Source: Flavobacterium sp. (GTDB lineage: Bacteria > Bacteroidota > Bacteroidia > Flavobacteriales > Flavobacteriaceae). From it: DNA of 64,000 nucleotides. Below, in pieces: positions 726 through 61,152 of the stretch. Location: the NCBI RefSeq assembly GCF_046155325.1, contig NZ_JBJXDQ010000003.1, positions 4,804-68,803 on the forward strand. Reading direction: 5' to 3'. Each line of letters begins with the position of its first letter. Position 1 is the stretch's first letter. Made by a program: the position numbers and the translations under genes. The notes below the pieces were generated by a model that saw nothing but the letters and a program-made list of their open reading frames with translations, did not search any database and was not told the origin of the DNA.

Positions 726-789
726 GCCACGAATTCACAAATTTTATTCAAAACAAATTGAAATAAATTCGTGAATTCGTGGCAAAAAA
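726..789. repeat. Palindromic element upstream of GxxExxY gene
   Basis: gccacgaattcac (726-738) is the exact reverse complement of gtgaattcgtggc (771-783). Confidence 0.9.
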
Positions 790-800
790 GATACGAAAAA

Positions 801-1175
801 ATGGCAGAAATACTATACAAAGAAGAAAGCTATCAAATAATGGGAATTTTATTTGAAGTTCACAGCAATTTAGGTGGTGGCTTTTCAGAAATTGTATACA
901 AAGATGCTATAGAATATGAGTTTAAAAATTTGAATATTCCTTACGAAAGAGAAAAGGAATATTCTGTAAATTATAAAAACATTATTTTAAACCATAAGTT
1001 TTATGCCGATTTTGTTTTGTTTGATTCTATAATTTTAGAAATAAAATCAAGCGAAAACCTTCACCCAAAACATTATTCACAATGTTTAAACTATTTAAAA
1101 GTTTCAAACAACAGGTTGGCTATTTTAGCCAATTTTAATTCTATATCTTTAGAGCATAAACGCATAATTAGATAA
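801..1175 (+). CDS. GxxExxY family protein (PD-(D/E)XK nuclease-like)
   Basis: GFSEIVY motif; ADF..EIK nuclease-like motif; ATG at 801 preferred because the GTG at 771 lies inside the repeat. Confidence 0.9.
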   Translation: MAEILYKEESYQIMGILFEVHSNLGGGFSEIVYKDAIEYEFKNLNIPYEREKEYSVNYKNIILNHKFYADFVLFDSIILEIKSSENLHPKHYSQCLNYLKVSNNRLAILANFNSISLEHKRIIR

Positions 1176-1178
1176 ATA

Positions 1179-1203
1179 AAATTCGTGAATTCGTGGCAAA
1201 AAA
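1179..1203. repeat. 25-nt direct repeat of the GxxExxY upstream arm
   Basis: aaattcgtgaattcgtggcaaaaaa identical at 765-789 and 1179-1203. Confidence 0.9.
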
Positions 1204-1204
1204 A

Positions 1205-2626
1205 ATGAACTACAAAGAATCCTTAAATAATAAAATCTTCGAAGTAATATCTCAAGCTTCCCAAGAACTTAACATCGATAGTTATGTGATTGGTGGTTTT
1301 GTTCGGGATTATTTATTAGAACGAGATTTCAAAAAAGACATTGATATTGTTGCCGTGGGCAGCGGAATAGAACTCGCTTTGAAAGTTTCGGAATTGCTTC
1401 CCAAAAAACCAAATGTTCAGGTTTTTAAAACCTACGGAACCGCCATGTTGCGTTTTGAAGATACCGAAATCGAGTTTGTTGGTGCTAGAAAAGAGTCCTA
1501 TCAGTTTGATAGTAGAAATCCATTAGTTGAAAATGGAACCCTTGAAGATGATCAAAATCGTCGGGATTTTACCATTAATGCTTTGGCAATTTCTTTAAAA
1601 AAAGAAACTTATGGAGAATTATCGGATCCTTTTAACGGATTAGAAGATTTGAAAAATAAAATTATCAGAACGCCACTTGACCCAGATATTACTTTTTCTG
1701 ATGATCCTTTGCGAATGTTGAGAGGCATTCGATTTGCCAATCAATTGGGATTTCGAATTGAAGAAAGTTCTTTGCAATCCATCACAAAAAATGCTGAAAG
1801 AATCAAAATAATTTCAGGCGAAAGAATTGTGGATGAGTTAAATAAAATACTTTCGACCGACAAACCTTCAATTGGCTTTTTGCTATTGTATAAAACGGGA
1901 CTTTTAGATATTATTCTTCCTGAATTAACGGCATTGAATCAAGTGGAGGAAATCGAAGGTCAAACACATAAAAATAATTTTTATCACACTTTAGAAGTCG
2001 TTGATAACATTTGCCCTAATACAGATGATGTTTGGTTACGCTGGTCTGCATTATTACACGACATTGGCAAAGCACCTACAAAACGCTTCAACAAAAAACA
2101 AGGTTGGACATTTCACGGGCATGAATTTCTAGGTGGAAAAATGGCAAAGAAAATATTCGAAAGATTGCATATGCCTCTGAATCACAAAATGAAATTTGTA
2201 CAAAAAATGGTCATGATGAGTTCAAGACCCATAGTACTTTCGCAAGATTTAGTTACCGATTCTGCTGTGCGCCGTTTGGTTTTTGATGCAGGAGAGGATG
2301 TCGAAAGTTTGATGACTTTATGCGAAGCTGATATAACAACTAAAAACCCAACTAAATTCAAGAAATACCATCAAAATTTTGAGATAGTTCGAAAGAAAAT
2401 AGTCGAAGTGGAAGAACGAGATCATGTTCGTAATTTCCAACCTCCAATTACCGGAGAAGAAATTATGGCTATTTTTGATTTAAAGCCCTCTCGTGAAATA
2501 GGAATTCTTAAAGAAGCTATAAAAGAGGCTATTTTAGAGGGTGAAATACCCAACGAATATCAGGCAGCTTATGATTTTGTTTTGGTAAAGGCCGAAAAAA
2601 TAGGTTTGAAAAGAGTAACAAATTAG
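1205..2626 (+). CDS. cca: CCA tRNA nucleotidyltransferase with HD domain
   Basis: GGFVRD, DIDI, RRDFTINA, DDPLRMLRGIRF and LLHDIGK motifs; ATG at 1205 (the GTG at 1193 is inside the repeat). Confidence 0.9.
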   Translation: MNYKESLNNKIFEVISQASQELNIDSYVIGGFVRDYLLERDFKKDIDIVAVGSGIELALKVSELLPKKPNVQVFKTYGTAMLRFEDTEIEFVGARKESYQFDSRNPLVENGTLEDDQNRRDFTINALAISLKKETYGELSDPFNGLEDLKNKIIRTPLDPDITFSDDPLRMLRGIRFANQLGFRIEESSLQSITKNAERIKIISGERIVDELNKILSTDKPSIGFLLLYKTGLLDIILPELTALNQVEEIEGQTHKNNFYHTLEVVDNICPNTDDVWLRWSALLHDIGKAPTKRFNKKQGWTFHGHEFLGGKMAKKIFERLHMPLNHKMKFVQKMVMMSSRPIVLSQDLVTDSAVRRLVFDAGEDVESLMTLCEADITTKNPTKFKKYHQNFEIVRKKIVEVEERDHVRNFQPPITGEEIMAIFDLKPSREIGILKEAIKEAILEGEIPNEYQAAYDFVLVKAEKIGLKRVTN

Positions 2627-2691
2627 TATTTCATTATAATTTGTTTGATACTAAAATTTAAATTATGTACTAATTTTGCATTTCAATCTAA

Positions 2692-3714
2692 ATGATGAGA
2701 AAATATTTTTTAAAATCAGCAAAAATTTCGCTAGTTCTTGTTTATCTGGTAATTTTTGCTGGTGCATTTGTTAGACTCACTGGATCAGGAATGGGTTGTC
2801 CTGATTGGCCTAAATGCTTTGGCTATTATATCCCTCCTACACAAGAAAAAGAATTATTTTTCGCAGCCGAAAAAGAATATTCTGAGGGTCAAGTGATTAT
2901 AAAAGACCAAATGCTATTAGTATCCAAAAATGATTTTAAATCAACAGACAGCTTTGATAATAGCAATTGGGAAAAATATGCCAAACACGATTATGCTATT
3001 TTCAATGTCTGGCATACTTGGATTGAATATATCAATCGATTGTTTGGAGCCTTAGCCGGAATTGCCTGTTTTATTACATTCATACTCTCATTTGGCTATT
3101 TTAAAGAAAACAAAACTCTTGTAATTAATTCGTTTTTAATATGTGTATTAATGGGTTTTCAAGCATGGCTTGGTAAAACTGTAGTAGATTCGGTTTTAAA
3201 CCCATTTAAAATAACAACACATATGTTAGCTGCATTATTGATTGTTGCCCTTCAATTGTATTTGATTTTCTCAATTTCAAAAACAATAACAAAATTGTTT
3301 TTTAATACTAAATTTCATAACATTCTATTGGTTGCTTCGACACTAACGCTAGTCCAAATTGTTTTAGGAACTAATGTTCGAGAGCATGTAGATACTATTT
3401 ATGAAACTGGAGTCCCAAAAGTATTTTGGTTGCAAAACCCTAGTGTTTCGTTTTATATACACAGATCTTTTTCGATTGTCGTGCTATTAACTAATGTATA
3501 TTTATTTTTTTGTAATAAGAAACTTGGATTAGGATTCAAAAAACTAAATTGGATATTATTGTTGATATTTATTGAAATTTTATCGGGAATCTTAATGTAC
3601 TATTTTGATTTTCCATTTGGTTCACAAACCCTACATATCGTTATAGCAACGCTATTATTTGGTTTTCAATTCTATTTGATTTTAGAATCAAATAGAACAA
3701 AATCAGTAAAATAA
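2692..3714 (+). CDS. ctaA: Heme A synthase, COX15/CtaA family
   Basis: VRLTGSGMGCPDWPKC motif, multiple TM helices, conserved His residues (HML, HRSF, HIV). Confidence 0.85.
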   Translation: MMRKYFLKSAKISLVLVYLVIFAGAFVRLTGSGMGCPDWPKCFGYYIPPTQEKELFFAAEKEYSEGQVIIKDQMLLVSKNDFKSTDSFDNSNWEKYAKHDYAIFNVWHTWIEYINRLFGALAGIACFITFILSFGYFKENKTLVINSFLICVLMGFQAWLGKTVVDSVLNPFKITTHMLAALLIVALQLYLIFSISKTITKLFFNTKFHNILLVASTLTLVQIVLGTNVREHVDTIYETGVPKVFWLQNPSVSFYIHRSFSIVVLLTNVYLFFCNKKLGLGFKKLNWILLLIFIEILSGILMYYFDFPFGSQTLHIVIATLLFGFQFYLILESNRTKSVK

Positions 3715-3764
3715 ATTATCTTTACCACTGACTATATTGTCACATTTTTTTGTTAACGCCTTAA

Positions 3765-4538: not shown

Positions 4539-4796
4539 ATCATCATAGATATAATCTATATATAAGTCATAAGATACTGAATTCCATATATTTTATATGT
4601 ATTTATATAAAATTATAGTTTAATTTAAAATCTCATGAAAAAAATATAAATCACAAACTACTTTTTGCATAATTTAGTTGTTATATCAATTCAATATTTT
4701 AAAAAAATCGTTATCTTTTTAACATATCTTTTAAAAAAAAAGAATAAGTACTAATTAATTTTCTTCTATATTTATCTTCAATTAGCTTGTAGTTTT

Positions 4797-5999: not shown

Positions 6000-6004
6000 A
6001 AAAA

Positions 6005-6038
6005 GGGTTTAAAGGTTTAAGGTGGTTTAAAAGTTTAA
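6005..6038. repeat. GTTTAA-type periodic repeat, left arm of four-helix-bundle cassette
   Basis: ggtttaaa ggtttaa ggt ggtttaaa agtttaa. Confidence 0.85.
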
Positions 6039-6048
6039 TATCGTTTAT

Positions 6049-6458
6049 ATGGCTACAATAACAAAATTCGAAGATTTAGAAATTTGGGAAGAGGTAAGAA
6101 GACTTTCAAAAGAAATAATTTTCATATCTAAAAACACTGAACTAAATAAATATTTTAAATTTAATGCTCAAATTAAAGACTCGTCAGGATCTGTAATGGA
6201 TAACATCGCTGAAGGGTTTGAAAGGAATGGAAACGCTGAAATCCGCCAATTTCTATCCATAGCTAAAGGCTCAGCTGGAGAAACCCGTTCTCAATTATAT
6301 AGAGTTTTCGACAATGAATATATTGATGAAGAAAAATTAAAATATTTAGTTACTGTGTATGAAAATTGAGTATTAAAATTCACAATTTCATCACTTACCT
6401 AAACAAAAAAGACTTCAGAGGTACAAAATTTATAGACCCACAAACCCCAAACTCTTAA
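6049..6458 (+). pseudogene. Four-helix-bundle (23S rRNA IVS/Avd-like) protein, frameshifted near 6365
   Basis: KFEDLEIW..R, QIKDSSGSVMDNIAEGFER, FLSIAKGSAGETRSQL; TGA at 6367, but the shifted frame continues LSIKIHNFITYLNKKDFRGTKF to TAA at 6456-6458. Confidence 0.8.
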
Positions 6459-6513
6459 ACAAACTTAAACTTTTAAACAATTTTAAACGAAATTAAATAA
6501 TCTTAAACCTTTA
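6455..6513. repeat. TTAAAC-type periodic repeat, right arm (inverted relative to 6005-6038)
   Basis: ttaaacttttaaac 6465-6478 is the reverse complement of 6025-6038; ttaaaccttta 6503-6513 is the reverse complement of 6010-6020. Confidence 0.85.
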
Positions 6514-7572: not shown

Positions 7573-7599
7573 ACTGTCAATAAAATAACTGATTTTATC

Positions 7600-7633
7600 A
7601 ATCCTCAATCACCTAGGTAGTTGAGGATTTTTT
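7600..7633 (+). terminator. Intrinsic terminator
   Basis: aatcctcaa/ttgaggatt 9-bp stem followed by a T run. Confidence 0.75.
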
Positions 7634-7682
7634 ATAAAAAACCATCTCGAGGGATAGCTCCAGGGGTATTAGCAAAATAAAA

Positions 7683-7734
7683 GCGACAGATTCACAGATT
7701 TTAAAAAATCTATTTTAATCTGTGAATCTGTGAC
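7683..7734. repeat. Gene-less palindromic element related to the GxxExxY flank
   Basis: acagattcacagatt (7686-7700) pairs with aatctgtgaatctgt (7717-7731). Confidence 0.85.
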
Positions 7735-7878
7735 AAAAAAACCGAAGTAGAGCTTTGAGGAACTAAACCTAAAAAAGATTAAAATATAAGTTTTATATTA
7801 CATTTTAATAAAAATATTGCGTTTAAACGATAAAATGATTCGCTTTGACTGATTTTTACATAAATTTGTCTTCACTAA

Positions 7879-11394: not shown

Positions 11395-12502
11395 GCTGTG
11401 TTCAACTCATAAGTGCAACAAACTTATTATTTAGAGTTTCAATTGGACTAAGGTAATTAAATTTTCTTATAGGTCTGTTATTAATTGATAATTCTACTTG
11501 TTTAATTCTTTCATTAGTTACATTTCGTAAATCAGTTTTCTTTGGAAAAAATCTTCTAATTACACCTATTCTATTTTCTACAGTTCCTTTTTCTTGCGAA
11601 GTATATGGTGTTGTAAAATAGGTTTTTAGATTAAATCTATTGGCGATTTCAGTATGTCCAGCAAACTCTTTTCCGTTGTCAAATGTGATTGATTTTAAAT
11701 AACTCGAATTGAATATGGAGAGTCTTTCTATTATTTTCTGTGTGACTTCTAATGATGTTTTTCCCTGCAACTTATCTATCATGGTAATTAACGTAGTTCG
11801 GTCTGTAAGGACTAGTAATTCTGATTTGTGGTCTTTTCCCATCATTAAATCTGCTTCTAAATCTCCAATTCTTTTTCTTTGTTCAATAACTGCTGGTCTT
11901 TCACTTATATGCTGACGGTTTAGAATTGCTCCTCGTGTGTCTTTTATATTTCCTCTTTTTTGTCTCCTTTTACCATGTTTCAATTCTTGATAAAACGTCT
12001 TAAAAAGTTTATTTTCTAGCCTATTAGTATGTTTTGATTCCCATATCCACTTATATATTGTTTCATGGCTAACGGTAATCTTTCCTTCTAATTTCCAGCG
12101 CTTTGATATTAATTCTGGACTCCATTTATCCAGAGTCATTTTATCAAATATAGCTTGCTTTAAATCAGGAGTTAATAAAACCCTTTTGTGTTTTTCCTTA
12201 TGACGATTACGAGTTTTTCGCTCTGCATTTGCAGCACAGTATTCGCCAGAACCTCTTCCTCTTTTGGGTATGGATCTTTTTAATTCCCTACCAATTGTAC
12301 TACGGTGAACACCTAGCTGATCGGCTATCTTTGTTTGATTAAAACCAGCTTGTAATAGAGCTTCGATTTGGTATCTTTGCTCAACGGTTAGTTGTTTATA
12401 TTTTTTCATGCAAGACAAATTTAGGCTTTTGACCTTAAACACTTGGGGGATAACTCCAAGTGTTTTTAATTTTATCTGTTGCACTTATAGCTTGAACTTA
12501 CA
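11395..12502 (-). mobile_element. IS30-family insertion sequence (IS4351-like ends)
   Basis: 26-bp imperfect terminal IRs at 11395-11420 and 12477-12502 (19/26 matching); AAT duplicated at 11392-11394 and 12503-12505; encloses the transposase. Confidence 0.9.
11402..12409 (-). CDS. IS30-family transposase
   Basis: HTH (IADQLGVHRSTIGRELKR), WSPELI, VSHETIY, DDE region (GDLEADL, SITFDNGKEF, KGTVENRIG); ATG at 12409. Confidence 0.95.
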   Translation of the reverse strand: MKKYKQLTVEQRYQIEALLQAGFNQTKIADQLGVHRSTIGRELKRSIPKRGRGSGEYCAANAERKTRNRHKEKHKRVLLTPDLKQAIFDKMTLDKWSPELISKRWKLEGKITVSHETIYKWIWESKHTNRLENKLFKTFYQELKHGKRRQKRGNIKDTRGAILNRQHISERPAVIEQRKRIGDLEADLMMGKDHKSELLVLTDRTTLITMIDKLQGKTSLEVTQKIIERLSIFNSSYLKSITFDNGKEFAGHTEIANRFNLKTYFTTPYTSQEKGTVENRIGVIRRFFPKKTDLRNVTNERIKQVELSINNRPIRKFNYLSPIETLNNKFVALMS

Positions 12503-16972: not shown

Positions 16973-17044
16973 TAGTCCCTGGGGGAATCGAACCCCCCTT
17001 ACCAGGATGAAAACCTGGCGTCCTAACCGATAGACGAAGGGACC
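16973..17044 (-). tRNA. tRNA-Glu (TTC), CCA not encoded
   Basis: GGTCCCT/AGGGACT acceptor stem, CCAGG-TT TTC AT-CCTGG anticodon arm, GGGGG-TTCGATT-CCCCC T arm. Confidence 0.95.
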
Positions 17045-18700: not shown

Positions 18701-19657
18701 ATGAAAACTACTATTACTTTTTCCGCAAAAACAGCACTTTATTCCTATATTGGTGTATTAAGTATTTTAATTTCATCTTGTAGCTCATACCAAAACAGTT
18801 CCTATTATGATACTGACGGTATTTATGGAAATACCGAGGTTAGAAACATCGAAAAAAGAACTACTGAAAATGTAACCCAAAATACTTCGAATAATAAATA
18901 CAAAGAATATTTCAATTCTTTGCAAAACGAAAATTTATCTAGTGGATTATTTAACGATGTACAAAATGATAATATTATTAATTCAAACAATGCTGATGCA
19001 AATCGTGAATACAACAACCCTAATACCACTATTATTTACGTAAATGATAACGGATGGAACAACTGGAATTCTGGTTGGGGAATGAACAACTGGTATGGCG
19101 GTTGGGGATGGAACAACGGATGGGGAATGAATAACTGGTACGGCGGTTGGGGATGGAATAATTGGAACAATGGATGGGGAGGAAATTTTGGTTGGGGATG
19201 GAACAACGGTTGGGGATGTAATAATTGGGGAAACCAATATTACTCCAACAATCAATATTCTTATGCAGTTGGCAGACGTGGATCTGCAAATACTAATGTT
19301 AGAAATGTAAACAGAAGCAATTCCCAAAACAACACTGTAAATAACAGATCAAATTATACCATTTCGAGTAGAAACGCTTCTAATAATGATTTAAACAGAA
19401 CCGTTATAAGAAGAACCGAATCACAAATTCAAAATAATTCCACTTCGACGAATCGTACTAGAACCAATTCAGACACCAATACTACTCGTTCCGAAAGCAC
19501 TACTCCTACTAGATCCTACACGCCTAGTTCCAATAATTCATCAAACAATTCGAGAAGTTCGAGTTCGTTTGACAGCGGTAGCCGATCATCTAACAGTGGT
19601 GGTGGATCTTTTGGCGGCGGAGGAGGAAGATCATCTGGTAGCGGAGGAAGAAGATAA
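18701..19657 (+). CDS. Putative lipoprotein with W/G/N and S/G/R low-complexity regions
   Basis: Lipobox-like ISSC; GWGWNN repeats; GGGRSSGSGGRR tail. Confidence 0.75.
   Translation: MKTTITFSAKTALYSYIGVLSILISSCSSYQNSSYYDTDGIYGNTEVRNIEKRTTENVTQNTSNNKYKEYFNSLQNENLSSGLFNDVQNDNIINSNNADANREYNNPNTTIIYVNDNGWNNWNSGWGMNNWYGGWGWNNGWGMNNWYGGWGWNNWNNGWGGNFGWGWNNGWGCNNWGNQYYSNNQYSYAVGRRGSANTNVRNVNRSNSQNNTVNNRSNYTISSRNASNNDLNRTVIRRTESQIQNNSTSTNRTRTNSDTNTTRSESTTPTRSYTPSSNNSSNNSRSSSSFDSGSRSSNSGGGSFGGGGGRSSGSGGRR
19076..19165 (+). repeat. 45-nt tandem coding repeat (WGMNNWYGGWGWNN x2)
   Basis: Units start at 19076 and 19121; the four differences in the first 14 codons are all synonymous. Confidence 0.9.
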
Positions 19658-21290: not shown

Positions 21291-21384
21291 AACTGGATAT
21301 AAATATTGTAAATAGAAAGCCATTTCATTTATTGAAGTGGTTTTCCTTTTAGTGGATATTTTGAAATACTAAAAGTACTAAAAT

Positions 21385-21447
21385 AGACCCGAGTGCAGTG
21401 GAAATCCTCCCGATTTTTCTTCGGGAGATTAAAACGAAAAGCGGGAC
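21385..21447 (+). ncRNA. Probable Flavo-1-like RNA motif/repeat
   Basis: cccg..gcagtggaaatc-[ctcccga/tcgggag hairpin]-gatt..cgaaaagcggga layout matches my recollection of the Flavo-1 motif; not verified by a covariance search. Confidence 0.55.
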
Positions 21448-21537
21448 TCAACACTCTAAAAAAATACAAAGGTTTATGCTTCTAAAAATAAAAATCGTAA
21501 TTTTGCAAAATTCCCAATTTATAGGGATTATAAATCT

Positions 21538-41393: not shown

Positions 41394-43631
41394 CTACAAA
41401 ACCAATAAACCAAAATCTCTCAAAGTATTGACCGGTTTTGAATACCAAAACAATTCGAAATCATTAAAATGAATTTCAAAATCAGATTTTACTTCCTGAA
41501 ATGAATAGATTTTTGAATTTGAAACCGATATTTTCTGGAGTATTTGAACCAACCATTCTCCCTCATTTTTCGCTGTTTGAATGGTAAAGCTTTCCTTTTT
41601 GTCGTGAAAAGTCAAAGTCATCATTTCCCAACTGTTTCCTTTTTTGGACTTTGTAAAATATTCTAAAGTTGGCATTCCTCCTAGCCAAACTATTTTGGCT
41701 GTCGGTTTAATATTAAAATCTAAATCTTTAAGCAAGGCTTCAGAGATAAAATCAGGATGAATTTTGGTTTTTGGAATCTTAAAATCGAACCATTCTTGCA
41801 ATTCGTAGTCAAAACAAATTCCGTGCATAAAATTGAATAAGGATTTTTTTAAACCATAACTAAATTGATTATGATCTATTCCTGTTTCATCAACGAAGTT
41901 TATATCGTTATTAGCAAAAGTCCCAACAACTTCGGTTTCTTTCACCACGCCAAATTTCTCTGGATACATTCCCACAGGACTGTGTGCTGTCATCGCAAAT
42001 TGATGCCAGAAACCCGATTGCAAAACCCCAACTTCAAACAATTGTCGCACCATTTCGAGGCTATCTACAGTTTCCTGAACCGTTTGCGTGGGATAACCAT
42101 ACATCAAATAAGCATGAACCATGATGTTGGCTTCGGTAAAATTGCGAGTCACTTTAGCCACTTGTTCGACCGTTACGCCTTTGTCTATCAATTGTAATAA
42201 TCGGTCTGAGGCTACTTCGAGTCCTCCCGAAACGGCAATACATCCGGAAGCTTTGAGCAATAAACATAAATCTCTAGTAAAACTTTTTTCGAAACGAATG
42301 TTCGTCCACCACGTAACTGATAATTTCCTGCGCAGAATTTCTAGTGCCAACGCTTTCATTAAGGCTGGAGGTGCTGCTTCATCTACAAAATGAAAACCAT
42401 TTTCACCCGTTTGCGCTATCATCTCTTCCATTCGATCACACAAAATATTGGCGGCGATGGGCTCGTAAACCTTAATATAATCTAACGAAATATCGCAAAA
42501 AGTACATTTTCCCCAATAGCAACCGTGTGCCATCGTGAGTTTGTTCCATCGACCATCGCTCCACATTCGGTGCATGGGATTGACTATCTCAATAACCGAA
42601 ATGTATTTGTCTAATAGCAAATCTGAATAATCGGGTGTGCCAACTTGAGATTGTTTGTAATCGGATTTTAATGAATTGTTTTTATAAACTACTTTGCCGT
42701 TTTCAAGAAGGAAAGTTCTTTTAAATTGCCCTTCGACAAGCTCAGGGTGACAAACTGCATTTACGAGTAACTCCACTGGTAATTCGCCGTCATCTAAAGT
42801 AATGAAATCGAAAAACTCAAATACACGAGTGTCTGAAAGCGAACGCAATTCGGTATTAGGAAAACCACCACCCATGGCAATTTTGATATTTGGGTGGTGT
42901 TTCTTTACCCATTGAGCCGAACGAAAAGCCGCATATAAATTCCCCGGGAAAGGTACTGAAATCAGGAATAATTTGGGTTGAATGGTTTCGATTTTTTCTT
43001 TTAGAATCGATATTAAAATTACATCAATATAAGTTGGTTCTTGTTGCAGAGCTTCATACAATTCGTCGAATGAATTAGCAGAGCGACCCAATCGTTCTGC
43101 GTAGCGACTGAAACCAAAATTAGCATCGACACATTCTACAATAAAATCGGAAATGTCTTCGAGGTATAAAGTCGCTAGATGTTTGGCTTTGTCTTGCGTT
43201 CCCATCGTTCCGAAAGCCCAATCCAATTCCTCCAATTGTGCAAAACGAGAAGCTTCAGGCAAATAATCTTCCTGACAAATTTGTAATGCCAATGTTGGGT
43301 TTTTCCCCTGAAGAAATGCAATAACACTATCTATGGTTTTAATGTATTCGTCTTGGAGAGCGAGAATTCTTTGGGTGTTTATTGTTAAAATGGAACGCAT
43401 CTCGACTGCGCTCGAGGTGACACCTTCATTGTTACAAAACAAATTTTCAAGTCCTTCTTTAGAAAATAATTTCAAAATCACTTCAATGCCTAAATCAGCT
43501 TGAGTTGTCTGAATGTTTTTGGTATTCAGAAACCCTTTGATATAAGCGGTTGCTGGATACGGTGTATTCAGTTGAGTAAAGGGTGGTGTGATGAGGAATA
43601 CTTTGCTTTTCAAAGGAATTGTTTTGTGCAA
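41394..43631 (-). CDS. B12-binding domain radical SAM protein
   Basis: ITPPFTQLNTPYPA; HGCYWGKCTFC; alternative TTG start at 43613. Confidence 0.9.
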   Translation of the reverse strand: MHKTIPLKSKVFLITPPFTQLNTPYPATAYIKGFLNTKNIQTTQADLGIEVILKLFSKEGLENLFCNNEGVTSSAVEMRSILTINTQRILALQDEYIKTIDSVIAFLQGKNPTLALQICQEDYLPEASRFAQLEELDWAFGTMGTQDKAKHLATLYLEDISDFIVECVDANFGFSRYAERLGRSANSFDELYEALQQEPTYIDVILISILKEKIETIQPKLFLISVPFPGNLYAAFRSAQWVKKHHPNIKIAMGGGFPNTELRSLSDTRVFEFFDFITLDDGELPVELLVNAVCHPELVEGQFKRTFLLENGKVVYKNNSLKSDYKQSQVGTPDYSDLLLDKYISVIEIVNPMHRMWSDGRWNKLTMAHGCYWGKCTFCDISLDYIKVYEPIAANILCDRMEEMIAQTGENGFHFVDEAAPPALMKALALEILRRKLSVTWWTNIRFEKSFTRDLCLLLKASGCIAVSGGLEVASDRLLQLIDKGVTVEQVAKVTRNFTEANIMVHAYLMYGYPTQTVQETVDSLEMVRQLFEVGVLQSGFWHQFAMTAHSPVGMYPEKFGVVKETEVVGTFANNDINFVDETGIDHNQFSYGLKKSLFNFMHGICFDYELQEWFDFKIPKTKIHPDFISEALLKDLDFNIKPTAKIVWLGGMPTLEYFTKSKKGNSWEMMTLTFHDKKESFTIQTAKNEGEWLVQILQKISVSNSKIYSFQEVKSDFEIHFNDFELFWYSKPVNTLRDFGLLVL
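42729..42752 (-). repeat. TGTCA-type REP-like unit in frame inside the radical SAM gene
   Basis: tgtcaccctgagcttgtcgaaggg encodes CHPELVEG. Confidence 0.75.
43398..43422 (-). repeat. Second TGTCA-type REP-like unit in frame inside the radical SAM gene
   Basis: tgtcacctcgagcgcagtcgagatg encodes VTSSAVEM; internal ctcga/tcgag stem. Confidence 0.75.
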
Positions 43632-46327: not shown

Positions 46328-47935
46328 ATGCCAACAGACGCTATCAGCTATCAAAAATCCGGTTATTTCTCGCCTTTGATGAATGATTATTTAGACCAAA
46401 AATCTAATACAAAGTCTCTCTACAATCGGTTTCCAATTCTTGAAAATTTTGAAGCGCAAGTTCAGGAAAAAAAAGCAAATTATACCCATGAAAATAGAGC
46501 AATATTAGTATCGGTAATAGAATCACAATATGCCAAAATAAATCCTTCTACTGCTACTTTAAACAATATTAAACTTTTAAACAACTCCAATACATTCACC
46601 GTTACCACTGGTCATCAATTGAATTTATTCACAGGACCATTATATTTTTTGTATAAAATTATTTCGACTATAAATTTAACGAAGGAATTAAAATCGAAAT
46701 ACCCCAGCTTTAATTTCGTTCCCATTTATTGGATGGCGACCGAAGATCATGATTTTGAGGAAATCAATTATTTCAATTTAAAAGGTCGAAAATTTCGATG
46801 GAACACCAACAGCTCTGGAGCAGTAGGTCGCTTATCTACTAATGGATTAGACGCTTTTTTTGAAGTCTATTCTAAAGAAATTGGTTCAGGCAAAAATGCC
46901 GAGACAATCAAAACGCTTTTTAAGGAATCATATTTAAAACATTCCAATTTAGCCGATGCCACTCGTTTTCTTGCCAATGCACTTTTTGGTGAATATGGAT
47001 TGGTGATTCTTGATGCTGATAATGCCGATTTGAAACGAACTTTTATACCTTACATCAAAGAAGAATTACTACAGCAAACAGCCTATAAAAAGGTAATAGA
47101 AACCACCCGAAAATTATCAAATTACAATATTCAAGTGAATCCTCGAGAGATTAATTTATTCTATTTAGAAAACAATTTAAGGGAACGTATCTTATTTGAT
47201 CCCTATAGCAATAGGGACGGAAAATATAAAGTAAACAATACGACTATCGAATTTTCAGAAAGTGAAATTTTATCGGTACTAGAAAATCATCCCGAAAAAT
47301 TTAGCCCCAACGTAATTATGCGATCGTTGTATCAAGAAGTTATCTTACCCAATTTGTGCTACATAGGAGGTGGTGGCGAAATTGGTTATTGGTTAGAATT
47401 GAAATCTTTTTTTGATGCTGTAAAAGTATCATTTCCTATTCTTTTAGTTCGGAACTCGGCTCTATTGGTCACTGAAAAGCAAACCAAAAAAGCAGATAAA
47501 TTAGAACTGACTTGGAAAGATTTGTTCTCCAAACAAAAGGATTTGGTTAATACCAAAACAGAGCAATTATCAGAGTTCCCAATCGATTTTACATCTCAAA
47601 AAGAACTTTTGCAAAAACAATTCGAAAGACTTCATGAAATAGCCAATCAGACCGATAAATCTTTTATTGGAGCCGTAGAAGCGCAAGAAGCCAAACAAAT
47701 AAAAGGATTGGTAAATCTCGAAAAACGACTATTAAAAGCCCAAAAACGCAAGCATTCCGAAGAACTGGAAAGAATTACCGATTTGCAAAACGAATTGTTT
47801 CCAAATCAAAGTTTACAGGAACGCCAAGCCAATTTTTCGGAATTTTATAGGGAAAATGGTGAAAAGTTGATCACTACATTGATAGATCAACTGAAACCAT
47901 TAGGAAATAATTTTAATATTATTACACTTTCTTAA
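46328..47935 (+). CDS. bshC: Bacillithiol biosynthesis cysteine-adding enzyme
   Basis: TTGHQLNLFTGPLY, YWMATEDHDFEEI, FSPNV, GGGGEIGYW, LQERQANF. Confidence 0.93.
   Translation: MPTDAISYQKSGYFSPLMNDYLDQKSNTKSLYNRFPILENFEAQVQEKKANYTHENRAILVSVIESQYAKINPSTATLNNIKLLNNSNTFTVTTGHQLNLFTGPLYFLYKIISTINLTKELKSKYPSFNFVPIYWMATEDHDFEEINYFNLKGRKFRWNTNSSGAVGRLSTNGLDAFFEVYSKEIGSGKNAETIKTLFKESYLKHSNLADATRFLANALFGEYGLVILDADNADLKRTFIPYIKEELLQQTAYKKVIETTRKLSNYNIQVNPREINLFYLENNLRERILFDPYSNRDGKYKVNNTTIEFSESEILSVLENHPEKFSPNVIMRSLYQEVILPNLCYIGGGGEIGYWLELKSFFDAVKVSFPILLVRNSALLVTEKQTKKADKLELTWKDLFSKQKDLVNTKTEQLSEFPIDFTSQKELLQKQFERLHEIANQTDKSFIGAVEAQEAKQIKGLVNLEKRLLKAQKRKHSEELERITDLQNELFPNQSLQERQANFSEFYRENGEKLITTLIDQLKPLGNNFNIITLS
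47200..47217. repeat. Short hairpin in frame inside bshC
   Basis: tccctat-agca-ataggga encodes (D)PYSNRD. Confidence 0.6.
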
Positions 47936-48450: not shown

Positions 48451-48498
48451 TTTTCAGAAGGCAGATTTCAGATTTAAGATTAAAAATCTACATAACAC

Positions 48499-48542
48499 AA
48501 ATCCCGTTTAAACCCGACGCTTCGGGAGAAACGGGATTTTTT
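48499..48542. terminator. Bidirectional terminator with a cccgacgcttcggga hairpin in its loop
   Basis: aaatcccgttt/aaacgggattt outer stem; inner element at 48513-48527. Confidence 0.8.
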
Positions 48543-48582
48543 ATTTCTGAAATGCATCTGTAATCTGCTACCTGAAATCTAA

Positions 48583-48882
48583 TCATCTCAAAACAACATC
48601 TTTCACTACATCACGCCTTAATTCTTCATTAATCATGGCGATAATTTTTGATTTTCCGTGACTTAATTCCTCTCTAAGTACAGCTGATGAAAGTTGAACA
48701 TAAAGTGTATTCCCTTTCAAAACCACATTTTTAGTATAATGATTTACTCCATTACCCATTAGGTTTTTCCAAGCTTCTTTCACATCAATTTGATCCATCC
48801 CAGGCTGTAACTTATTTACCTGAATGATTTCTTTCAAAACATCTCCTATAGTACTTTGATTATTTAATCTTTTTGCCATCAT
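48583..48882 (-). CDS. DUF721 domain protein
   Basis: AWKNLMG..LYVQLSSAVLREEL pattern. Confidence 0.82.
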   Translation of the reverse strand: MMAKRLNNQSTIGDVLKEIIQVNKLQPGMDQIDVKEAWKNLMGNGVNHYTKNVVLKGNTLYVQLSSAVLREELSHGKSKIIAMINEELRRDVVKDVVLR

Positions 48883-51532: not shown

Positions 51533-51543
51533 AACTATTAAGA

Positions 51544-51571
51544 AATTAGAAGTTAGAGATTAGAGGTTAGA
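51544..51571. repeat. Heptamer tandem (xxTTAGA x4) upstream of ftsY
   Basis: aattaga agttaga gattaga ggttaga. Confidence 0.8.
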
Positions 51572-51634
51572 AACCGCAAACTCTACTATCATTCACACAA
51601 AATTAAAATTACAATCGGTAAATATAGAAAATAA

Positions 51635-52035: not shown

Positions 52036-52057
52036 ATTGATATATATTTTGAAAGGA

Positions 52058-54622: not shown

Positions 54623-54687
54623 TCAGTTCAGATTTCAGATTTTGGATTTCAGATTTCAGACTGCTATCTAAAACCGTTATCTGCAAC
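54623..54687. repeat. Heptamer array filling the intergenic spacer
   Basis: agatttc agatttt ggatttc agatttc agactgc, then opposite-sense tatctaa and tatctgc units. Confidence 0.85.
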
Positions 54688-55458
54688 CTATTTCGTATTT
54701 AATTTTCTTAATTTTATTGCCGTTAAAACTTTCTTAGTATATAAAGGGAAATCAGCATTTTGAATCCAACTAAAATAACCTGGTTCTGATTCTAAAATAG
54801 CTTCAACTTTTAATCCTTTGTGTTTTCCAAAAGTAAAAATCTCATTATTATCTTTATCAAAAGCAATCATTCCAGCAAAATCTGCTATTTTTTTGCGAGT
54901 TGTAAACTCAGACAACCATTTTACATCATTTTCTAATTCTGGATAACGGTCTAATTGAGCCTTCATGATTTCGAAAGTAGCCATAGTATCTGCTTCGGCA
55001 GAATGTGCGTTTTCAAGATTTTGACCGCAATAAAATTTTAATGCTGCACTCAAAGTTCTCTCTTCTTTTTTATGAAAAATAGTTTGCACATCGACAGATA
55101 CTCGGTTTTTCATATCAAAATCAACTCCGGCACGAAGCAATTCTTCAGCTAAAAGCGGAATATCAAAGCGATCGGAATTATATCCAGCTAAATCAGAATC
55201 TTTAATCATAGCATACACCTGAGACGCTAATGCTGCAAATGTAGGCTCATTAGCAACTTTTTCATTACTTATACCATGAATTGCTGTTGATTGTGGTGGA
55301 ATTGGAATCGTTGGATTAACTAACCAAGTTTTGCTTTCTCTATTACCATTTGGAAAAAGTTTAAAAATAGCAATTTCAACTATTCTATCTTTGGCAACAT
55401 CAATACCTGTAGTTTCTAGATCGAAAAAACAAATTGGTTTTTTTAGTATAAGCTCCAT
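54688..55458 (-). CDS. DEDDh 3'-5' exonuclease (DNA polymerase III epsilon-like)
   Basis: FDLETTG, GYNSDRFD, HSAEAD. Confidence 0.9.
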   Translation of the reverse strand: MELILKKPICFFDLETTGIDVAKDRIVEIAIFKLFPNGNRESKTWLVNPTIPIPPQSTAIHGISNEKVANEPTFAALASQVYAMIKDSDLAGYNSDRFDIPLLAEELLRAGVDFDMKNRVSVDVQTIFHKKEERTLSAALKFYCGQNLENAHSAEADTMATFEIMKAQLDRYPELENDVKWLSEFTTRKKIADFAGMIAFDKDNNEIFTFGKHKGLKVEAILESEPGYFSWIQNADFPLYTKKVLTAIKLRKLNTK

Positions 55459-56943: not shown

Positions 56944-57040
56944 AGTATTTCCTATAGAATAATGGTTTTATTGGGACAAAATTAGTGATTAATTTTAGTT
57001 TTAAACACGAATTATTCAAATTTACCTAAATTCAAAATTC

Positions 57041-58192
57041 TTAAATTTTGAGAATTTCGCCACGATCAAAAGAACTATTACTTCCAATGATAAAATCTGA
57101 AGTTTTTGAAGCTATTTTAAAGGTAAATTTTTTATTTTTATTCGATTCAAAATTAGCAATAATAGCCTTATAATCAATATATTTAGCGTCGAATATTACT
57201 TCTGTAGCCACTGACATTTTAATTTCATCAATAGATTTTTTGAGTGCTACTTCCTGATATAATTTTGCTTCAATTCTACTTTTAAGAACTTTATTATTTG
57301 AAATCAACAAATACTTTAGCGGTTTTGTTTGCAACTTAGTTTTTCCTTGAAACATTTTAAAAAACGAAAAAAATAGTATTCCAATTTTCATAAAGACTGA
57401 AAACAAAAAGGATCCCGAAGCGTCGGGAGTAAAATGCTTTTTATAGAAAAAATTCATCGCTTCACTAAAACGTTTCATATAAGCGCCATCTTTAATTGTG
57501 CTTTCACCTTTGTAGTGAATTATAGTTGTTTCAGGATAATAATAATTTGATTTTTCTTTTTTTAAAGCCATGTATGACAAATCAATATCGTCTGAATACA
57601 TAAAACAGTTTTCATCAAAACCTCCAATTTCAATATAAAAATCGCGTCTCATAACCATAAAAGCACCTACTAAAATAGCCGCTTTTCCAGTTGTGTTTTC
57701 AGAAAGATCTTGAGCATAATACTGATTAAATAAACTTGCTTTAGGAAATATTTTATAAAGACCGAAAATTTTCGTAAAAGCTACCCAGGGTGTTGGAATA
57801 CCGCGTTTACTTTCTGGAAGAAAATTTCCCGTTCCGTCAATAAGTTTTACCCCAACTATACCTAAATCTGATTGTTTTTTGGCGAAAGCCAATACCTTAA
57901 TAAAGGTATCTTCAGCAACAACTGTATCAGGATTTAATATACAAATAAATTCACCTTTTGCTTTTGAAACCCCAATGTTATTCCCTTTTGGAAAACCTAG
58001 ATTTTCTTTGTTTTCAATCAGAAAAACTTTAGGAAAAAGATGCTTAATCATGGCACAACTGCCATCTTGTGAATTATTATCGACTACAATAATTTCACCA
58101 TCTATGTTTTCCAATGCTTTTTGAACACTACAAACACATTGCTCTAGAAAATAGCGAACGTTATAATTAAGAATGATGACTGATAGTTGCAT
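57041..58192 (-). CDS. Glycosyltransferase family 2
   Basis: SVIILNYN, VVDNNSQDGS, LNPD, GGFDE..YSDDIDL. Confidence 0.92.
   Translation of the reverse strand: MQLSVIILNYNVRYFLEQCVCSVQKALENIDGEIIVVDNNSQDGSCAMIKHLFPKVFLIENKENLGFPKGNNIGVSKAKGEFICILNPDTVVAEDTFIKVLAFAKKQSDLGIVGVKLIDGTGNFLPESKRGIPTPWVAFTKIFGLYKIFPKASLFNQYYAQDLSENTTGKAAILVGAFMVMRRDFYIEIGGFDENCFMYSDDIDLSYMALKKEKSNYYYPETTIIHYKGESTIKDGAYMKRFSEAMNFFYKKHFTPDASGSFLFSVFMKIGILFFSFFKMFQGKTKLQTKPLKYLLISNNKVLKSRIEAKLYQEVALKKSIDEIKMSVATEVIFDAKYIDYKAIIANFESNKNKKFTFKIASKTSDFIIGSNSSFDRGEILKI
57413..57428 (-). repeat. tcccgacgcttcggga hairpin in frame inside the GT2 gene
   Basis: Encodes (T)PDASG; 15 nt identical to 48513-48527. Confidence 0.8.
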
Positions 58193-58307
58193 TTTTCAAA
58201 GATATATTTTATGTATCAAAGATGCAAAGGTCGACAGTTCTAAAGTAGAAAAATTAAAAGATTGCTTCTTGCCTTGTAATGAATTACTTTTGCAAAAAAA
58301 TACACTT

Positions 58308-60170
58308 GTGAATTACTTATCAGTCGAAAACATATCAAAATCTTTTGGAGAGCGTATTCTTTTCGAAAACATTTCATTTGGGATTAACAAAGACCAAAAA
58401 ATTGCTTTCATTGCCAAAAATGGTTCCGGAAAAACCACTATAATGAACATTATCAATGGTTTTGATGAGCCCGATACGGGACAAGTAATTCTTAGAAAAA
58501 GTATTCGAATGTCGTTTTTGTCACAAGACAATAAGTTGCAAGACGAATTAACAATTGAAGAAAGTATTTTTGCCTCGGATAACGAGAGTTTAAAAGTAAT
58601 TGAAGCCTACGAAAAAGCACTAGAAAATCCCGAAGATGAAGAAGCGTATCAAAAAGCTTTCGACGGAATGGATCAACACAATGCTTGGGATTTTGAAACC
58701 CAATACAAGCAAATTTTGTTCAAATTGAAGTTGGAAGACTTTAAATTGAAAGTAAAAAATCTCTCAGGTGGACAAAAAAAAAGATTGTCATTAGCTATTA
58801 TTTTAATCAATCGTCCTGATTTACTAATTCTAGATGAACCTACGAATCACCTCGATTTAGAAATGATTGAATGGCTCGAAAGTTATTTTGCCAAAGAAAA
58901 TATTACTTTATTTATGGTTACTCACGACCGTTTTTTCTTAGAACGTGTTTGTAACGAAATTATCGAACTCGACAACGGAAAAATCTACCAATACAAAGGC
59001 AATTATTCTTATTATTTAGAGAAAAAAGAAGAACGAATTGCTTCTGAAAATTCGAGTGTCGACAAAGCCCAAAACTTGTTTGTCAAAGAACTCGAATGGA
59101 TGCGTCGCCAGCCCAAAGCCAGAACTTGCAAGAGCAAATCACGTCAGGATGATTTTTATGTAATCAAAGAAAAAGCCCAAAGTCGCCGTCGAGAAAACGT
59201 AGTCGAACTTGAAATTAATATGGAACGCATGGGGAGCAAGATTATTGAGCTTCACAAAGTGTCTAAAAAGTTTAAAGATCATGTTATTTTAGATAATTTC
59301 AGTTTCGATTTTCAACGAGGAGAACGCGTTGGGATTATTGGAAAAAACGGTACAGGTAAATCGACTTTTCTAAACCTAATTACAGGTACATTGCCACTCG
59401 ATAGCGGAAAAGTAATTAAAGGAGACACCATAAAAGTGGGCTATTATACCCAAAGCGGTATCAACCCAAAACCGGGTCAAAAAGTAATAGATATTATCAA
59501 AGAATATGGCGAATACATTCCGCTAACGAAAGGGAAAATCATTTCGGCTGGGCAATTATTGGAACGATTTTTATTCGACAGAAAAAAACAACACGATTTC
59601 GTAGAAAAACTCAGTGGTGGCGAACTAAAACGCCTTTATTTATGTACTGTTTTAATTCAGAATCCTAATTTTTTGATTTTGGATGAACCTACTAATGATT
59701 TAGATATTGTAACCTTAAATGTACTCGAAAGTTTTTTATTAGATTATCCAGGTTGTTTACTGGTAGTTTCGCATGACCGTTATTTTATGGATAAAATTGT
59801 CGATAACTTATTTGTTTTTAGAGGGCAAGGCGAAGTTGAAAATTTTCCGGGCAATTACTCCGATTTTAGAGCGTATGAAGATTCGGTTGAACCCAAAAAA
59901 CTAGATTCGGTAAATACCGAAAAAGTCGATTGGAAACAAAACAACCCAACTGGGAATTTGACTTTCAACGAGCAAAAAGAATTTCAAAAAATCGAACGAG
60001 AAATCAAAGATTTGGAGTTTGAAAAAGCCAAAATAGAGCAATTATTTTCGGATGGAAAAGTTGCCGAAAATGAGGTTTTGGCTAAAGCCAAAGAGCTAGA
60101 AATTATCATTTCTAAAATTGAAGCCAAAGAGGAACGCTGGTTTGAGCTGAGTGCGAAGATTGAGGGGTAA
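58308..60170 (+). CDS. ABC-F family ATP-binding protein (Uup-like)
   Basis: Two NBDs (AKNGSGKT, GKNGTGKS; LSGGQKKR, LSGGELKR), no TM, coiled-coil tail; GTG start at 58308 inferred. Confidence 0.92.
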   Translation: MNYLSVENISKSFGERILFENISFGINKDQKIAFIAKNGSGKTTIMNIINGFDEPDTGQVILRKSIRMSFLSQDNKLQDELTIEESIFASDNESLKVIEAYEKALENPEDEEAYQKAFDGMDQHNAWDFETQYKQILFKLKLEDFKLKVKNLSGGQKKRLSLAIILINRPDLLILDEPTNHLDLEMIEWLESYFAKENITLFMVTHDRFFLERVCNEIIELDNGKIYQYKGNYSYYLEKKEERIASENSSVDKAQNLFVKELEWMRRQPKARTCKSKSRQDDFYVIKEKAQSRRRENVVELEINMERMGSKIIELHKVSKKFKDHVILDNFSFDFQRGERVGIIGKNGTGKSTFLNLITGTLPLDSGKVIKGDTIKVGYYTQSGINPKPGQKVIDIIKEYGEYIPLTKGKIISAGQLLERFLFDRKKQHDFVEKLSGGELKRLYLCTVLIQNPNFLILDEPTNDLDIVTLNVLESFLLDYPGCLLVVSHDRYFMDKIVDNLFVFRGQGEVENFPGNYSDFRAYEDSVEPKKLDSVNTEKVDWKQNNPTGNLTFNEQKEFQKIEREIKDLEFEKAKIEQLFSDGKVAENEVLAKAKELEIIISKIEAKEERWFELSAKIEG

Positions 60171-60336
60171 AATTTTCTATTTGTCTTTGCACTGAAATAC
60201 TTTCACGAAGTTGTATCTTTAAACAAAAAAAAACTTTTGATACTATCAAATGATACTATCAGTGAAGTAACCCAACTCTTAGAAGTATAAAAAAGTGCTA
60301 ACCGCAAAACAGAGTCGTGAACTACTCCGCAAAACT

Positions 60337-60690
60337 TTAATTAAAATCAACAAACTCAAAATCATTCATAGAAAAATCTAACACTTCCGATTTTGTGGCG
60401 TATTGCATAATTTCATTTATTCCTTTTTCGAGTAATAATGGTGTGGTATATTTTCGGCTGGTGGAAGTTAGTTCATCATTCAACATCATTTTGAAAAAAT
60501 ATTTTCCGTTTGCGGCTCTAGACTTAACATAAGTATATTTTTCGATGTTTGTCTTTATTTTTTCGATACTCTCCTCAGCCTCCATTTTGAGTTCGAAAGA
60601 AGGGCTAGTAAAAATAGTCTTTCCTTTTCGGGACGTGAATACAAATTTGTAGCGATCATCAAATCGTTTACTGATAACGAATGTTCCCAT
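60337..60690 (-). CDS. YegP/DUF1508 family protein
   Basis: YKFVFTSRKGKTIFTS..NGKYFF..SRKY..GI. Confidence 0.75.
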   Translation of the reverse strand: MGTFVISKRFDDRYKFVFTSRKGKTIFTSPSFELKMEAEESIEKIKTNIEKYTYVKSRAANGKYFFKMMLNDELTSTSRKYTTPLLLEKGINEIMQYATKSEVLDFSMNDFEFVDFN

Positions 60691-60708
60691 AGTTTAAATA
60701 TAAAAATT

Positions 60709-61065
60709 CTATTCGTTCATTTCGTCATAACGCACCGGAACTTGTGGGTCGTAGAGCGGACATTTGAATTCTTCTAAAGTATCAGCGAGAAGATTCATCG
60801 TTTTACCTTCGGTGCCGTAGCAATCAATTTGTATGCTTTGAGGGGTTGTTTTAATATGAAACCCCCCTTTACCACTGGTGTTTTTCCAACTACTTTCATC
60901 TACTTTTTCCCAATTGGCGAACACCGAATTTATTCGGTTTAGTATCACTTGAACAGGAAGCGTTTCCAGACCTTCGACTTCTTGTTGTTCGACCAAAGCT
61001 TCGTAAACCAAATGATGGTTGAGATAAATTCCGTCTTGATATTGCCAAAAAAGGAGTTCGTACAT
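60709..61065 (-). CDS. Hypothetical protein
   Basis: 118-aa ORF in operon context; LYDPQ motif near the C-terminus. Confidence 0.7.
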   Translation of the reverse strand: MYELLFWQYQDGIYLNHHLVYEALVEQQEVEGLETLPVQVILNRINSVFANWEKVDESSWKNTSGKGGFHIKTTPQSIQIDCYGTEGKTMNLLADTLEEFKCPLYDPQVPVRYDEMNE

Positions 61066-61072
61066 TTAATAA

Positions 61073-61152
61073 AATTAAAAGATTGAAAAATTGAAAGATT
61101 AAATAATTCTATGATTCACCGATTAAACAATTCACCGATTAAACAAATGAAC
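61073..61152. repeat. Octamer-periodic array (10 units)
   Basis: aattaaaa gattgaaa aattgaaa gattaaat aattctat gattcacc gattaaac aattcacc gattaaac aaatgaac. Confidence 0.8.

Follow-up and report, generated by a model that had tools for sequence, protein, structure and literature searches.

In a stretch of Flavobacterium DNA of 64,000 nucleotides (the window: positions 4804-68803 of contig C3 of the G000 assembly, which comprises 2.75 Mb in 202 contigs with 33% G+C), two small genes, one for a GxxExxY protein and one for a four-helix-bundle protein, turned out to lie in operon spacers between inverted arms composed of short tandem units. We give a probability of about 0.5 to the reading that these cassettes represent a widespread class of hairpin-armed small genes, whose arms and gene are swapped as a block through nuclease-driven replacement at the hairpin. 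No published description of such a hairpin-armed arrangement was found, and in a full-text search the papers that mention GxxExxY did so only in passing. The nearest public relatives of the window genes are Flavobacterium genomes. An earlier note on this DNA had placed both genes between inverted arms, and this was confirmed both by profile matches of the encoded proteins and by the arms themselves, whose positions are given in Table 1.

The GxxExxY cassette lies between tsaC (positions 151-717) upstream and cca (1205-2626), the gene of the CCA-adding enzyme, downstream. Its open reading frame (ORF; 771/801-1175) matched TIGR04256 with 125.3 bits (cut-off 35) and PF13366 (PDDEXK_3) with 115.2 bits (cut-off 22). 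The translation contains the motifs GFSEIVY, YADF, and LEIK, which seven orthologues have kept; the GxxExxY motif and the D...(D/E)xK residues being present, the product is a predicted PD-(D/E)XK nuclease. The gene is preceded by a hairpin, CCACGAATTCACAAATTT-N22-AAATTCGTGAATTCGTGG, and followed by a further copy of the right arm, which is predicted to pair with the left arm in the minimum-energy fold. Comparison with orthologues gave ratios of nonsynonymous to synonymous substitution (dN/dS) of 0.02-0.23, which places the cassette gene under purifying selection.

The second cassette is situated between a PRiA4_ORF3-like gene and NA37. Its ORF (6049-6369) matched TIGR02436 with 82 bits (cut-off 24) and PF05635 with 96.1 bits (cut-off 33.8), and its outer arms are likewise predicted to pair in the minimum-energy fold. 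At the orthologous site, nine other species carry a cassette of a different lineage with CTAAG, CTGAG, or CAAAG arms, one species has a decayed gene, and others have plain hairpins or GC-rich palindromes.

Both gene families recur in the genome, which holds 6-7 GxxExxY genes and 11 four-helix-bundle genes. Every cassette gene (17/17) is flanked by inverted arms of imperfect tandem units, the arm sequence being unique to each locus, and 16 of the 17 are co-oriented with the downstream gene. The genes are small, have no obvious promoter of their own, and occupy operon spacers in the same orientation as their neighbors. With gene names taken from the flanking translations, four-helix-bundle cassettes were located between groES and groEL (C113:11384-11695), between scoA and scoB (C32:5935-6246), and in both spacers of sufB-sufC-sufD (C200:10885-11202 and 12114-12419), and further cassettes directly upstream of bioD, trpS, and rpoN. 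The aligned cassette arms contain 22-55 Watson-Crick positions. When an inverted partner was allowed within 800 nt, 68 inverted pairs of tandem-unit arrays were counted genome-wide, compared with 19 in the reversed and 6 in the complemented control sequence. Their loop lengths were bimodal: about 37 pairs had loops of at most 35 nt, and 11, the cassettes, had loops of 364-495 nt.

The arms of the two families obey different rules. GxxExxY arms consist of two or three units with a period of 8-10, built on CRCNNATT and usually closed by GCC...GGC, the consensus of the period-8 arms being roughly (G/A)CC-CRCNNATT-CRCNNATT. Four-helix-bundle arms have at least three units with a period of 7 and a locus-specific word, such as GTCGAAA, AATTGAT, GTTGTAG, or GTGTTCA. 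The link between repeat family and gene family that the earlier note had proposed to look for was thus found, period-8 CRCNNATT arms going with GxxExxY genes and period-7 arrays with four-helix-bundle genes; gene and arms make up one heritable unit, with a grammar of arms proper to each gene family. The note had traced the repeats to one or a few systems, and a single one had to be given up: they comprise at least three, namely, the GxxExxY period-8 arms, the four-helix-bundle period-7 arms, and GC-rich mini-palindromes of 12-25 nt, to which the palindromes inside proteins belong. Across 31 genomes, compared with phylogeny ignored, the number of CACAGATT-type hairpins was correlated with that of GxxExxY genes (rho 0.56, p 0.001), and the presence of the one was associated with that of the other (Fisher odds ratio 20, p 0.0075); the correlation with four-helix-bundle genes in the same genomes was not significant (rho 0.22).

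The history of the tsaC-cca cassette was followed in a one-genome-per-species scan, from which the best 80 homologues of the window GxxExxY nuclease were taken; 71 of them gave usable alignments. Both tsaC and cca flank 74 of these best 80 homologues, and the genera concerned are Flavobacterium, Wocania, Hyunsoonleella, Algibacter, Polaribacter, Mariniflexile, and Formosa. This cassette has therefore long been settled at a fixed site and did not come recently, and where the earlier note had envisaged genes moving between sites, what we saw instead was alleles replacing one another at a single site, fixed and ancient. A smaller comparison of about 20 species of the genus revealed arms of the types CACGAATT, CGCAAATT, and CACAGATT at tsaC-cca. 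One genome (G003) has intact arms around a gene truncated at its 5' end, and cassette-free spacers elsewhere contain arrays of unrelated sequence, a long palindrome rich in G and C, or hardly anything. Among orthologous spacers there are thus alleles with the gene, with a truncated gene, with a hairpin only, and free of repeats, the breakpoints falling at the arms, so that the polymorphism sought by the earlier note, like the family-specific link, does exist. Two loci of the scan come from metagenome-assembled genomes (MAGs) named 'Limnohabitans sp.' (L158) and 'Chitinophaga pinensis' (L151); they have a tsaC-cassette-cca locus of Flavobacterium type and are probably mis-binned or mislabeled.

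The tree of the cassettes sorts by arm type and conflicts with that of the flanks. Approximately unbiased (AU) tests, for which the congruence groups were chosen after the trees had been seen, rejected congruence of cassette and flanks in both directions (p 0.0075, 0.0003, and 0.0105), and along a 2.6-kb alignment the switch of the nearest relative was confined to the cassette. With the arm class defined by positions 2 and 5 of the octamer unit, the 71-locus series required 23 changes of arm class on the flank-protein (host) tree versus 5 on the cassette-protein tree. At third-codon sites, cassette and flanks had diverged to different extents: in some pairs the cassette was far less diverged than its flanks (5/122 versus 117/406 sites, p 3e-10), and in very close hosts it was far more diverged (62/123 versus 48/295 sites, p 4e-12), highly diverged cassettes being found in 10 of the 35 closest host pairs. 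The window cassette itself is nearer to the cassettes of L113 and L114 than the flanks are to theirs (p 0.005 and 0.0005, respectively). By this measure cassettes have been exchanged on a short time scale, in both directions. An incongruence of G024 that had been taken for a recent transfer was withdrawn; the synonymous sites are saturated there, so the evidence for recent exchange comes from the 71-locus sample only.

The limits of the exchanged segment coincide with the arms. In close hosts, identity extends over the stop codon of tsaC and a left outer arm of CACGAATT, then drops, and resumes either at the right arm or a little way into cca; the right arm itself stops short of the cca start codon by 5-10 nt in 59 of the 70 loci. 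In L174 and L135, outer arms of the CACGAATT type enclose a nested CGCAGATT cassette, and the gene of L135 is chimeric, its 5' third matching the CGCAAATT type and the rest the CGCAGATT type. In L115, the hairpin and the gene are of the CACGA type, and the right arm is of the CGC type. This locus and L181 are two contigs of a single bin (MAG RH-14apr17-409), bear different cassette types, and differ at 0.18 of the third positions of their flanks, which suggests co-occurring strains with different alleles. All four octamer units were of one class in 58 of 64 cassettes, compared with 2.6% expected under random assortment, kinship being ignored in this comparison. The alignments show that other alleles have repeatedly taken the place of the gene-plus-arm block at tsaC-cca, with the arms as breakpoints, that the replacement leaves behind nested outer arms, hybrid left/right arms, and chimeric genes, and that the four octamer units of one cassette change together.

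Such a replacement might proceed as follows. The arms would extrude as a DNA hairpin or cruciform, which the cassette nuclease, probably a multimer reading one octamer per subunit, would recognize and cut. Repair of the break from an incoming or paralogous copy would then copy the cassette into the resident hairpin or replace the content of the latter, a step that would resemble homing. Hairpins that follow the GxxExxY arm grammar and enclose no gene occur at many places in the genome, and one is the core of a 147-nt element described below; such hairpins may be targets of the nuclease or relics. The four-helix-bundle cassettes, which have the same layout and no nuclease, would depend on host enzymes or on RNA-level processing. 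As to whether the arms act in DNA or RNA, G-U and A-C mismatches on the sense strand numbered 17 and 16 over 16 independent cassettes, which gives no signal of selection on a stem, and 9 and 35 in the orthologous series, the members of which are not phylogenetically independent. The absence of a G-U excess, together with the identity of units within an arm, favors a role at the DNA level, either in protein recognition or in homogenization via alternative hairpin registers. The non-autonomous cut/copy mode that the earlier note had ascribed to the cassettes is something we infer rather than observe.

Several observations weigh against nuclease-driven block replacement. The correlation of hairpins with GxxExxY genes is partly trivial, because the arms of the cassettes themselves count as hairpins, and for CACAGATT, the commonest family of hairpins that lack a gene, this fragmented assembly contains no gene to match. 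Because the four-helix-bundle protein is no nuclease, the two families cannot both be explained by one mechanism. Since all the exchanges seen concern one fixed site, ordinary homologous recombination after transfer could suffice, with no activity encoded by the cassette, and tight physical linkage would by itself tie arm class to gene clade. Hybrid cassettes exist (L115, L118, and L131). A clean empty allele, that is, the occupied site minus the cassette, was searched for in the orthologous spacers and not found. Synonymous sites are saturated among the genome of the window and its closest species (G000, G024, and G005), and the lineages of the cassettes predate the species, which makes an ancestral pile-up followed by differential loss possible in the small sample. 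Finally, the cutting of the arms by the nuclease, its binding specificity, and the extrusion of the hairpin are predictions from sequence.

If nuclease-driven replacement does take place, the cassettes, which reside in essential operons (groES-groEL, suf, and tsaC-cca) throughout a bacterial family and are under purifying selection and yet swapped between lineages at the limits of their repeats, would be a distinct type of genetic element. They would bring together three subjects hitherto dealt with apart: the intervening sequences of rRNA, repeats of the REP/RAYT kind, and systems that pair a nuclease with a repeat, as Ssn does (see below). We also entertain, as a bold and rather unlikely extension, that the GxxExxY proteins are hairpin-specific, homing-like nucleases whose specificity co-evolves with the four octamer words, one per subunit, and that the gene-less hairpins, the 147-nt element, and the four-helix-bundle cassettes are relatives inserting into resident hairpin loops. 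Were this true, the cassette lineages would amount to a natural library of pairs of small nucleases and recognition words. The 71-locus series predicts that a protein clade goes with an octamer word; should this be borne out, GxxExxY proteins would be compact nucleases of readable and evolvable specificity.

A different explanation places the function of the arms in RNA: they would pair in the operon transcript, RNase III would cut the stem and free the cassette RNA from the polycistronic message, and the turnover would be ordinary recombination. We regard this as possible, if on the doubtful side; it is compatible with an additional mechanism of spread at the DNA level. The four-helix-bundle gene family is the one found inside 23S rRNA intervening sequences, whose 28-bp terminal stem is cut by RNase III (PMC4990558), and the co-orientation of 16 of the 17 cassettes with the downstream gene, the predicted pairing of the outer arms of both window cassettes, and the ending of the right arm just short of the cca start codon all suit an element acting in the transcript. 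The mismatch counts given above, however, show no G-U excess. Moreover, a stem by itself needs no identical units within an arm, yet 58 of 64 cassettes keep four that are alike, and gene-less hairpins were found between convergent genes and within the 147-nt element.

According to a passive explanation, which we hold to be improbable, the cassettes are ordinary accessory genes, perhaps for defense, under diversifying selection, the arms are regulatory or REP-like hairpins of the host, and recombination in the flanks swaps the alleles, as in other hypervariable islands. This would account for a genomic position fixed across genera, for the strong purifying selection, and for the many alleles among close hosts, including the two in one metagenome bin (L115 and L181), and the chimeric gene shows that homologous recombination does occur. 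It fits poorly with a similarity that switches at the arms and not within tsaC or cca, with two unrelated gene families sharing one layout at 17 loci of the genome, with arms that are nested and specific in their grammar to the gene family, and with the concerted evolution of the four units. That the whole is an artefact, owed to chance or to the low complexity of a genome rich in A and T, is scarcely credible for the cassettes and holds for some individual arrays: many long-range 'repeats' are AT-rich chance matches, and two of the five sites listed as empty are not inverted repeats, but the 68 inverted pairs versus 6-19 in controls, with their bimodal loops, the architecture kept in 71 orthologous loci, and the much poorer folding of shuffled sequences (z = -4.7 for the 147-nt element) speak otherwise.

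The hairpin-armed cassettes have partial parallels among known systems. ORF-bearing intervening sequences of 23S rRNA have been described in helix 45 of Coxiella burnetii and in Leptospira, where the ORF is of the S23p type (PMC4990558). Like these, the cassettes measure about 0.45-0.5 kb, carry inverted repeats at their ends, with a long stem predicted around a small ORF, and lie inside a host transcript and in its direction; the Pfam family of their four-helix-bundle gene, PF05635, is also shared. Unlike them, the window cassettes occupy mRNA operon spacers and not helices 25/45 of rRNA (the window has no rRNA), their arms are tandem 7- to 8-nt units with no G-U signature, and an unrelated PD-(D/E)XK family shares the layout.

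The genes of the Ssn GIY-YIG nucleases are often flanked on both sides by the hairpin-forming NTS/SRM repeat that the enzyme recognizes, and this repeat is dispersed through the genome and co-occurs with the gene across genomes (PMC11893778). The cassette proteins, in contrast, match only PF13366 and PF05635, the predicted fold of their nuclease is PD-(D/E)XK and not GIY-YIG, the gene lies in the loop of an inverted pair, and the arms vary by locus instead of forming one genome-wide word. Repetitive extragenic palindromes (REP) and their doublets (REPIN), together with the REP-associated tyrosine transposase (RAYT), are short intergenic palindromes in inverted arrangement with one enzyme gene flanked by units (PMC3116915). 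There, as here, gene-less copies far outnumber gene copies; the genome of the window, however, has no intact Y1 (IS200/IS605-like) transposase, its arms enclose PF13366 or PF05635 genes, and its units are AT-rich tandem words. Homing endonuclease genes resemble the cassettes in that a selfish-looking nuclease gene occupies a defined site, with patchy presence among lineages and a replacement of alleles that has sharp borders at the ends of the element. The cassettes differ from them in belonging to no known family of this kind, in the absence of an intron or intein, and in having a putative hairpin target rather than a long asymmetric site, and conversion is only presumed for them.

The earlier note had also listed five gene-less arrays similar to the arms. 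Inverted arrays were indeed present at 7683 and 48461 and, in a weak form, at 54623, while those at 51544 and 61073 run in one direction and are not inverted. The hairpin at 7683 forms the center of an element of some 147 nt, which is dispersed over this genome in at least 14 full copies (on contigs C36, C11, C109, C75, C25, C193, C167, C124, C123, C153, C27, and C156 in addition to the window) and has one copy each in G004 and G011 and none in 28 other members of the genus; the central hairpin alone is widespread, with up to 37 matches per genome. Thirteen full copies could be aligned and have sharp common ends. The element folds much better than shuffled sequence, its subfamilies differ in the central hairpin by paired changes, and it matched no Rfam family at either the gathering score or permissive thresholds. 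In two copies (C167:6071-6247 and C124:17453-17626), the right arm is interrupted, exactly between its two octamers, by a GC-rich stretch of some 30 nt, a case of nested mini-palindrome insertion. The element could be a miniature inverted-repeat transposable element (MITE) or a small-RNA family; no terminal inverted repeats or target-site duplications were evident in the alignment of the copies, of which no systematic analysis was made.

In the spacer orthologous to that at 54623, G009 has a four-helix-bundle gene of 123 aa between long CAGTCT/CAGTTCT arrays, and G044 has a gene-less CAAAG hairpin. At the orthologues of the spacers at 48461, 51544, and 61073, no cassette was found among about 40 species; where these spacers are larger, they hold unrelated accessory genes, for a membrane protein, a DUF3291-like protein, or a DUF4160/DUF2442-like pair, as named from their translations. 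The array at 61073 is a member of a dispersed repeat of about 80 nt that occurs across the genus. Just before it, synteny with most relatives breaks after the gene ending at 60170, and homologues of the two genes that follow (60337-60690, weak DUF1508, and 60709-61065, no family) are scattered in other genomes. Array-like repetition of another kind was seen in G024 (C222:2246-2642 and C14:12196-12551), where units resembling a right arm recur three to four times at a spacing of about 88-107 nt.

The palindromes that the earlier note had seen translated inside proteins are all four present and in frame; their kinship with the cassette arms was not upheld, since their GC-rich sequences bear no relation to the AT-rich arms. 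Three of them (at 47200, 57413, and 43397) are peptide insertions, as had been suggested, with a net gain of 12-15 nt, and are unique to this genome among the seven to nine species compared; the fourth, at 42729, lies in a variable linker, in which four species, including G006, G013, and G011, have palindromic units. The palindrome at 47200, TCCCTATAGCAATAGGGA, occurs once in the genome. That at 57413, which makes the net insertion in a glycosyltransferase gene (TCCCGACGCTTCGGGA), belongs to a family, TCCCGA-N4-TCGGGA, with 41 copies, 13 of which lie well inside long ORFs, few of which are terminator-like, and several of which are located within CAGATTT arrays. GC-rich hairpins with 6-bp stems numbered 342, against 93 in shuffled sequence. 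The mini-palindromes are a separate class of tiny insertions into arrays, terminators, and in-frame protein loops; those in frame show that peptides are added to conserved enzymes by DNA-level elements in this lineage. A search of the genome for RAYT yielded only one PF01797 fragment (32.8 bits) with a stop codon, at a contig end, so the search gave no ground for assigning the palindromes to a REP/RAYT system. The small dispersed repeats (SDR) of Nostoc and Anabaena, which Elhai et al. reportedly described in 2008, are said to be very small units that insert into repeats and into genes with the frame kept. The mini-palindromes resemble these in their very small size and in entering both other repeats and, with the reading frame kept, genes, but their net insertions are just 12-15 nt, the phylum and the sequences are different, and the unit at 47200 is single-copy; by analogy, the SDR of Nostocaceae, which find mention in PMC3116915, are their closest described counterpart.

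Table 1. Positions in the window of the two cassettes, the gene-less arrays, and the palindromes inside proteins
Feature	Position	Strand	Remarks
Left-right hairpin of the GxxExxY cassette	728-789	+	CCACGAATTCACAAATTT-N22-AAATTCGTGAATTCGTGG; two octamer units per arm
GxxExxY / PD-(D/E)XK nuclease gene (predicted)	801-1175	+	124 aa from ATG at 801; profile matches
Distal right-arm copy, AAATTCGTGAATTCGTGGCAAAAAA	1170-1196	+	Stops 8 nt before the cca start codon (1205)
Left array, GGTTTAAAG-like units	6003-6047	+	Four-helix-bundle cassette
Four-helix-bundle gene, 23S rRNA intervening-sequence protein family	6049-6369	+	106 aa; profile matches
Right array, CTTAAAC-like units	6456-6512	+	Inverted complement of the array at 6003-6047
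Dispersed element of about 147 nt, three hairpins	7629-7784	+	At least 14 genome copies; no Rfam family
Central hairpin of the 147-nt element, GxxExxY-type arms GACAGATTCACAGATT...AATCTGTGAATCTGTGAC	7683-7735	+	Perfect hairpin
Palindromic unit GTCACCCTGAGCTTGTCGAAGGG (gene strand)	42729-42751	-	In frame, variable linker, B12-binding radical SAM protein
Palindromic unit GTCACCTCGAGCGCAGTCGAGATGC (gene strand)	43397-43421	-	In frame, radical SAM; net +15 nt versus seven relatives
Palindrome TCCCTATAGCAATAGGGA	47200-47217	+	In frame in bshC; net +15 nt (PYSNR) versus six relatives
Left CAGATTT-type heptamer array after ndk	48451-48481	+	Inverted partner at 48544-48584
ndk terminator hairpin	48501-48538	+	Mini-palindrome CCCGACGCTTCGGG (48513-48526) nested in the loop
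Right array, inverted partner of 48451-48481	48544-48584	+	Flanks the ndk terminator
TTAGAGA-type tandem array, one direction	51543-51573	+	No inverted partner; -8.3 kcal/mol
CAGATTT-type array with weak inverted partner	54624-54692	+	Weak hairpin, -16 kcal/mol
Palindrome TCCCGAAGCGTCGGGA	57413-57428	-	In frame, family-2 glycosyltransferase; net +12 nt versus eight relatives
Direct repeat array GATTGAAA... followed by two ATTCACCGATTAAACA copies	61078-61146	+	No inverted partner; -6.1 kcal/mol

Three further observations concern the window and its orthologues. The radical SAM linkers of G011, G013, and G015 that align to window positions 43340-43420 contain in frame a DNA resembling a heptamer array, GTTTAAAGTTTCAGGTTGAAGAGATTTCAGA, which means that AT-rich array sequence may be translated in some species. 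Rfam recognized only a tRNA (16973-17044) and a Flavo-1 RNA (21381-21452, 56 bits) in the window. Positions 19037-19225, inside the ORF at 18701-19657, form a coding tandem repeat with periods of 27 and 45 nt, the translation of which is rich in Trp, Asn, and Gly (WNNGWG-like).

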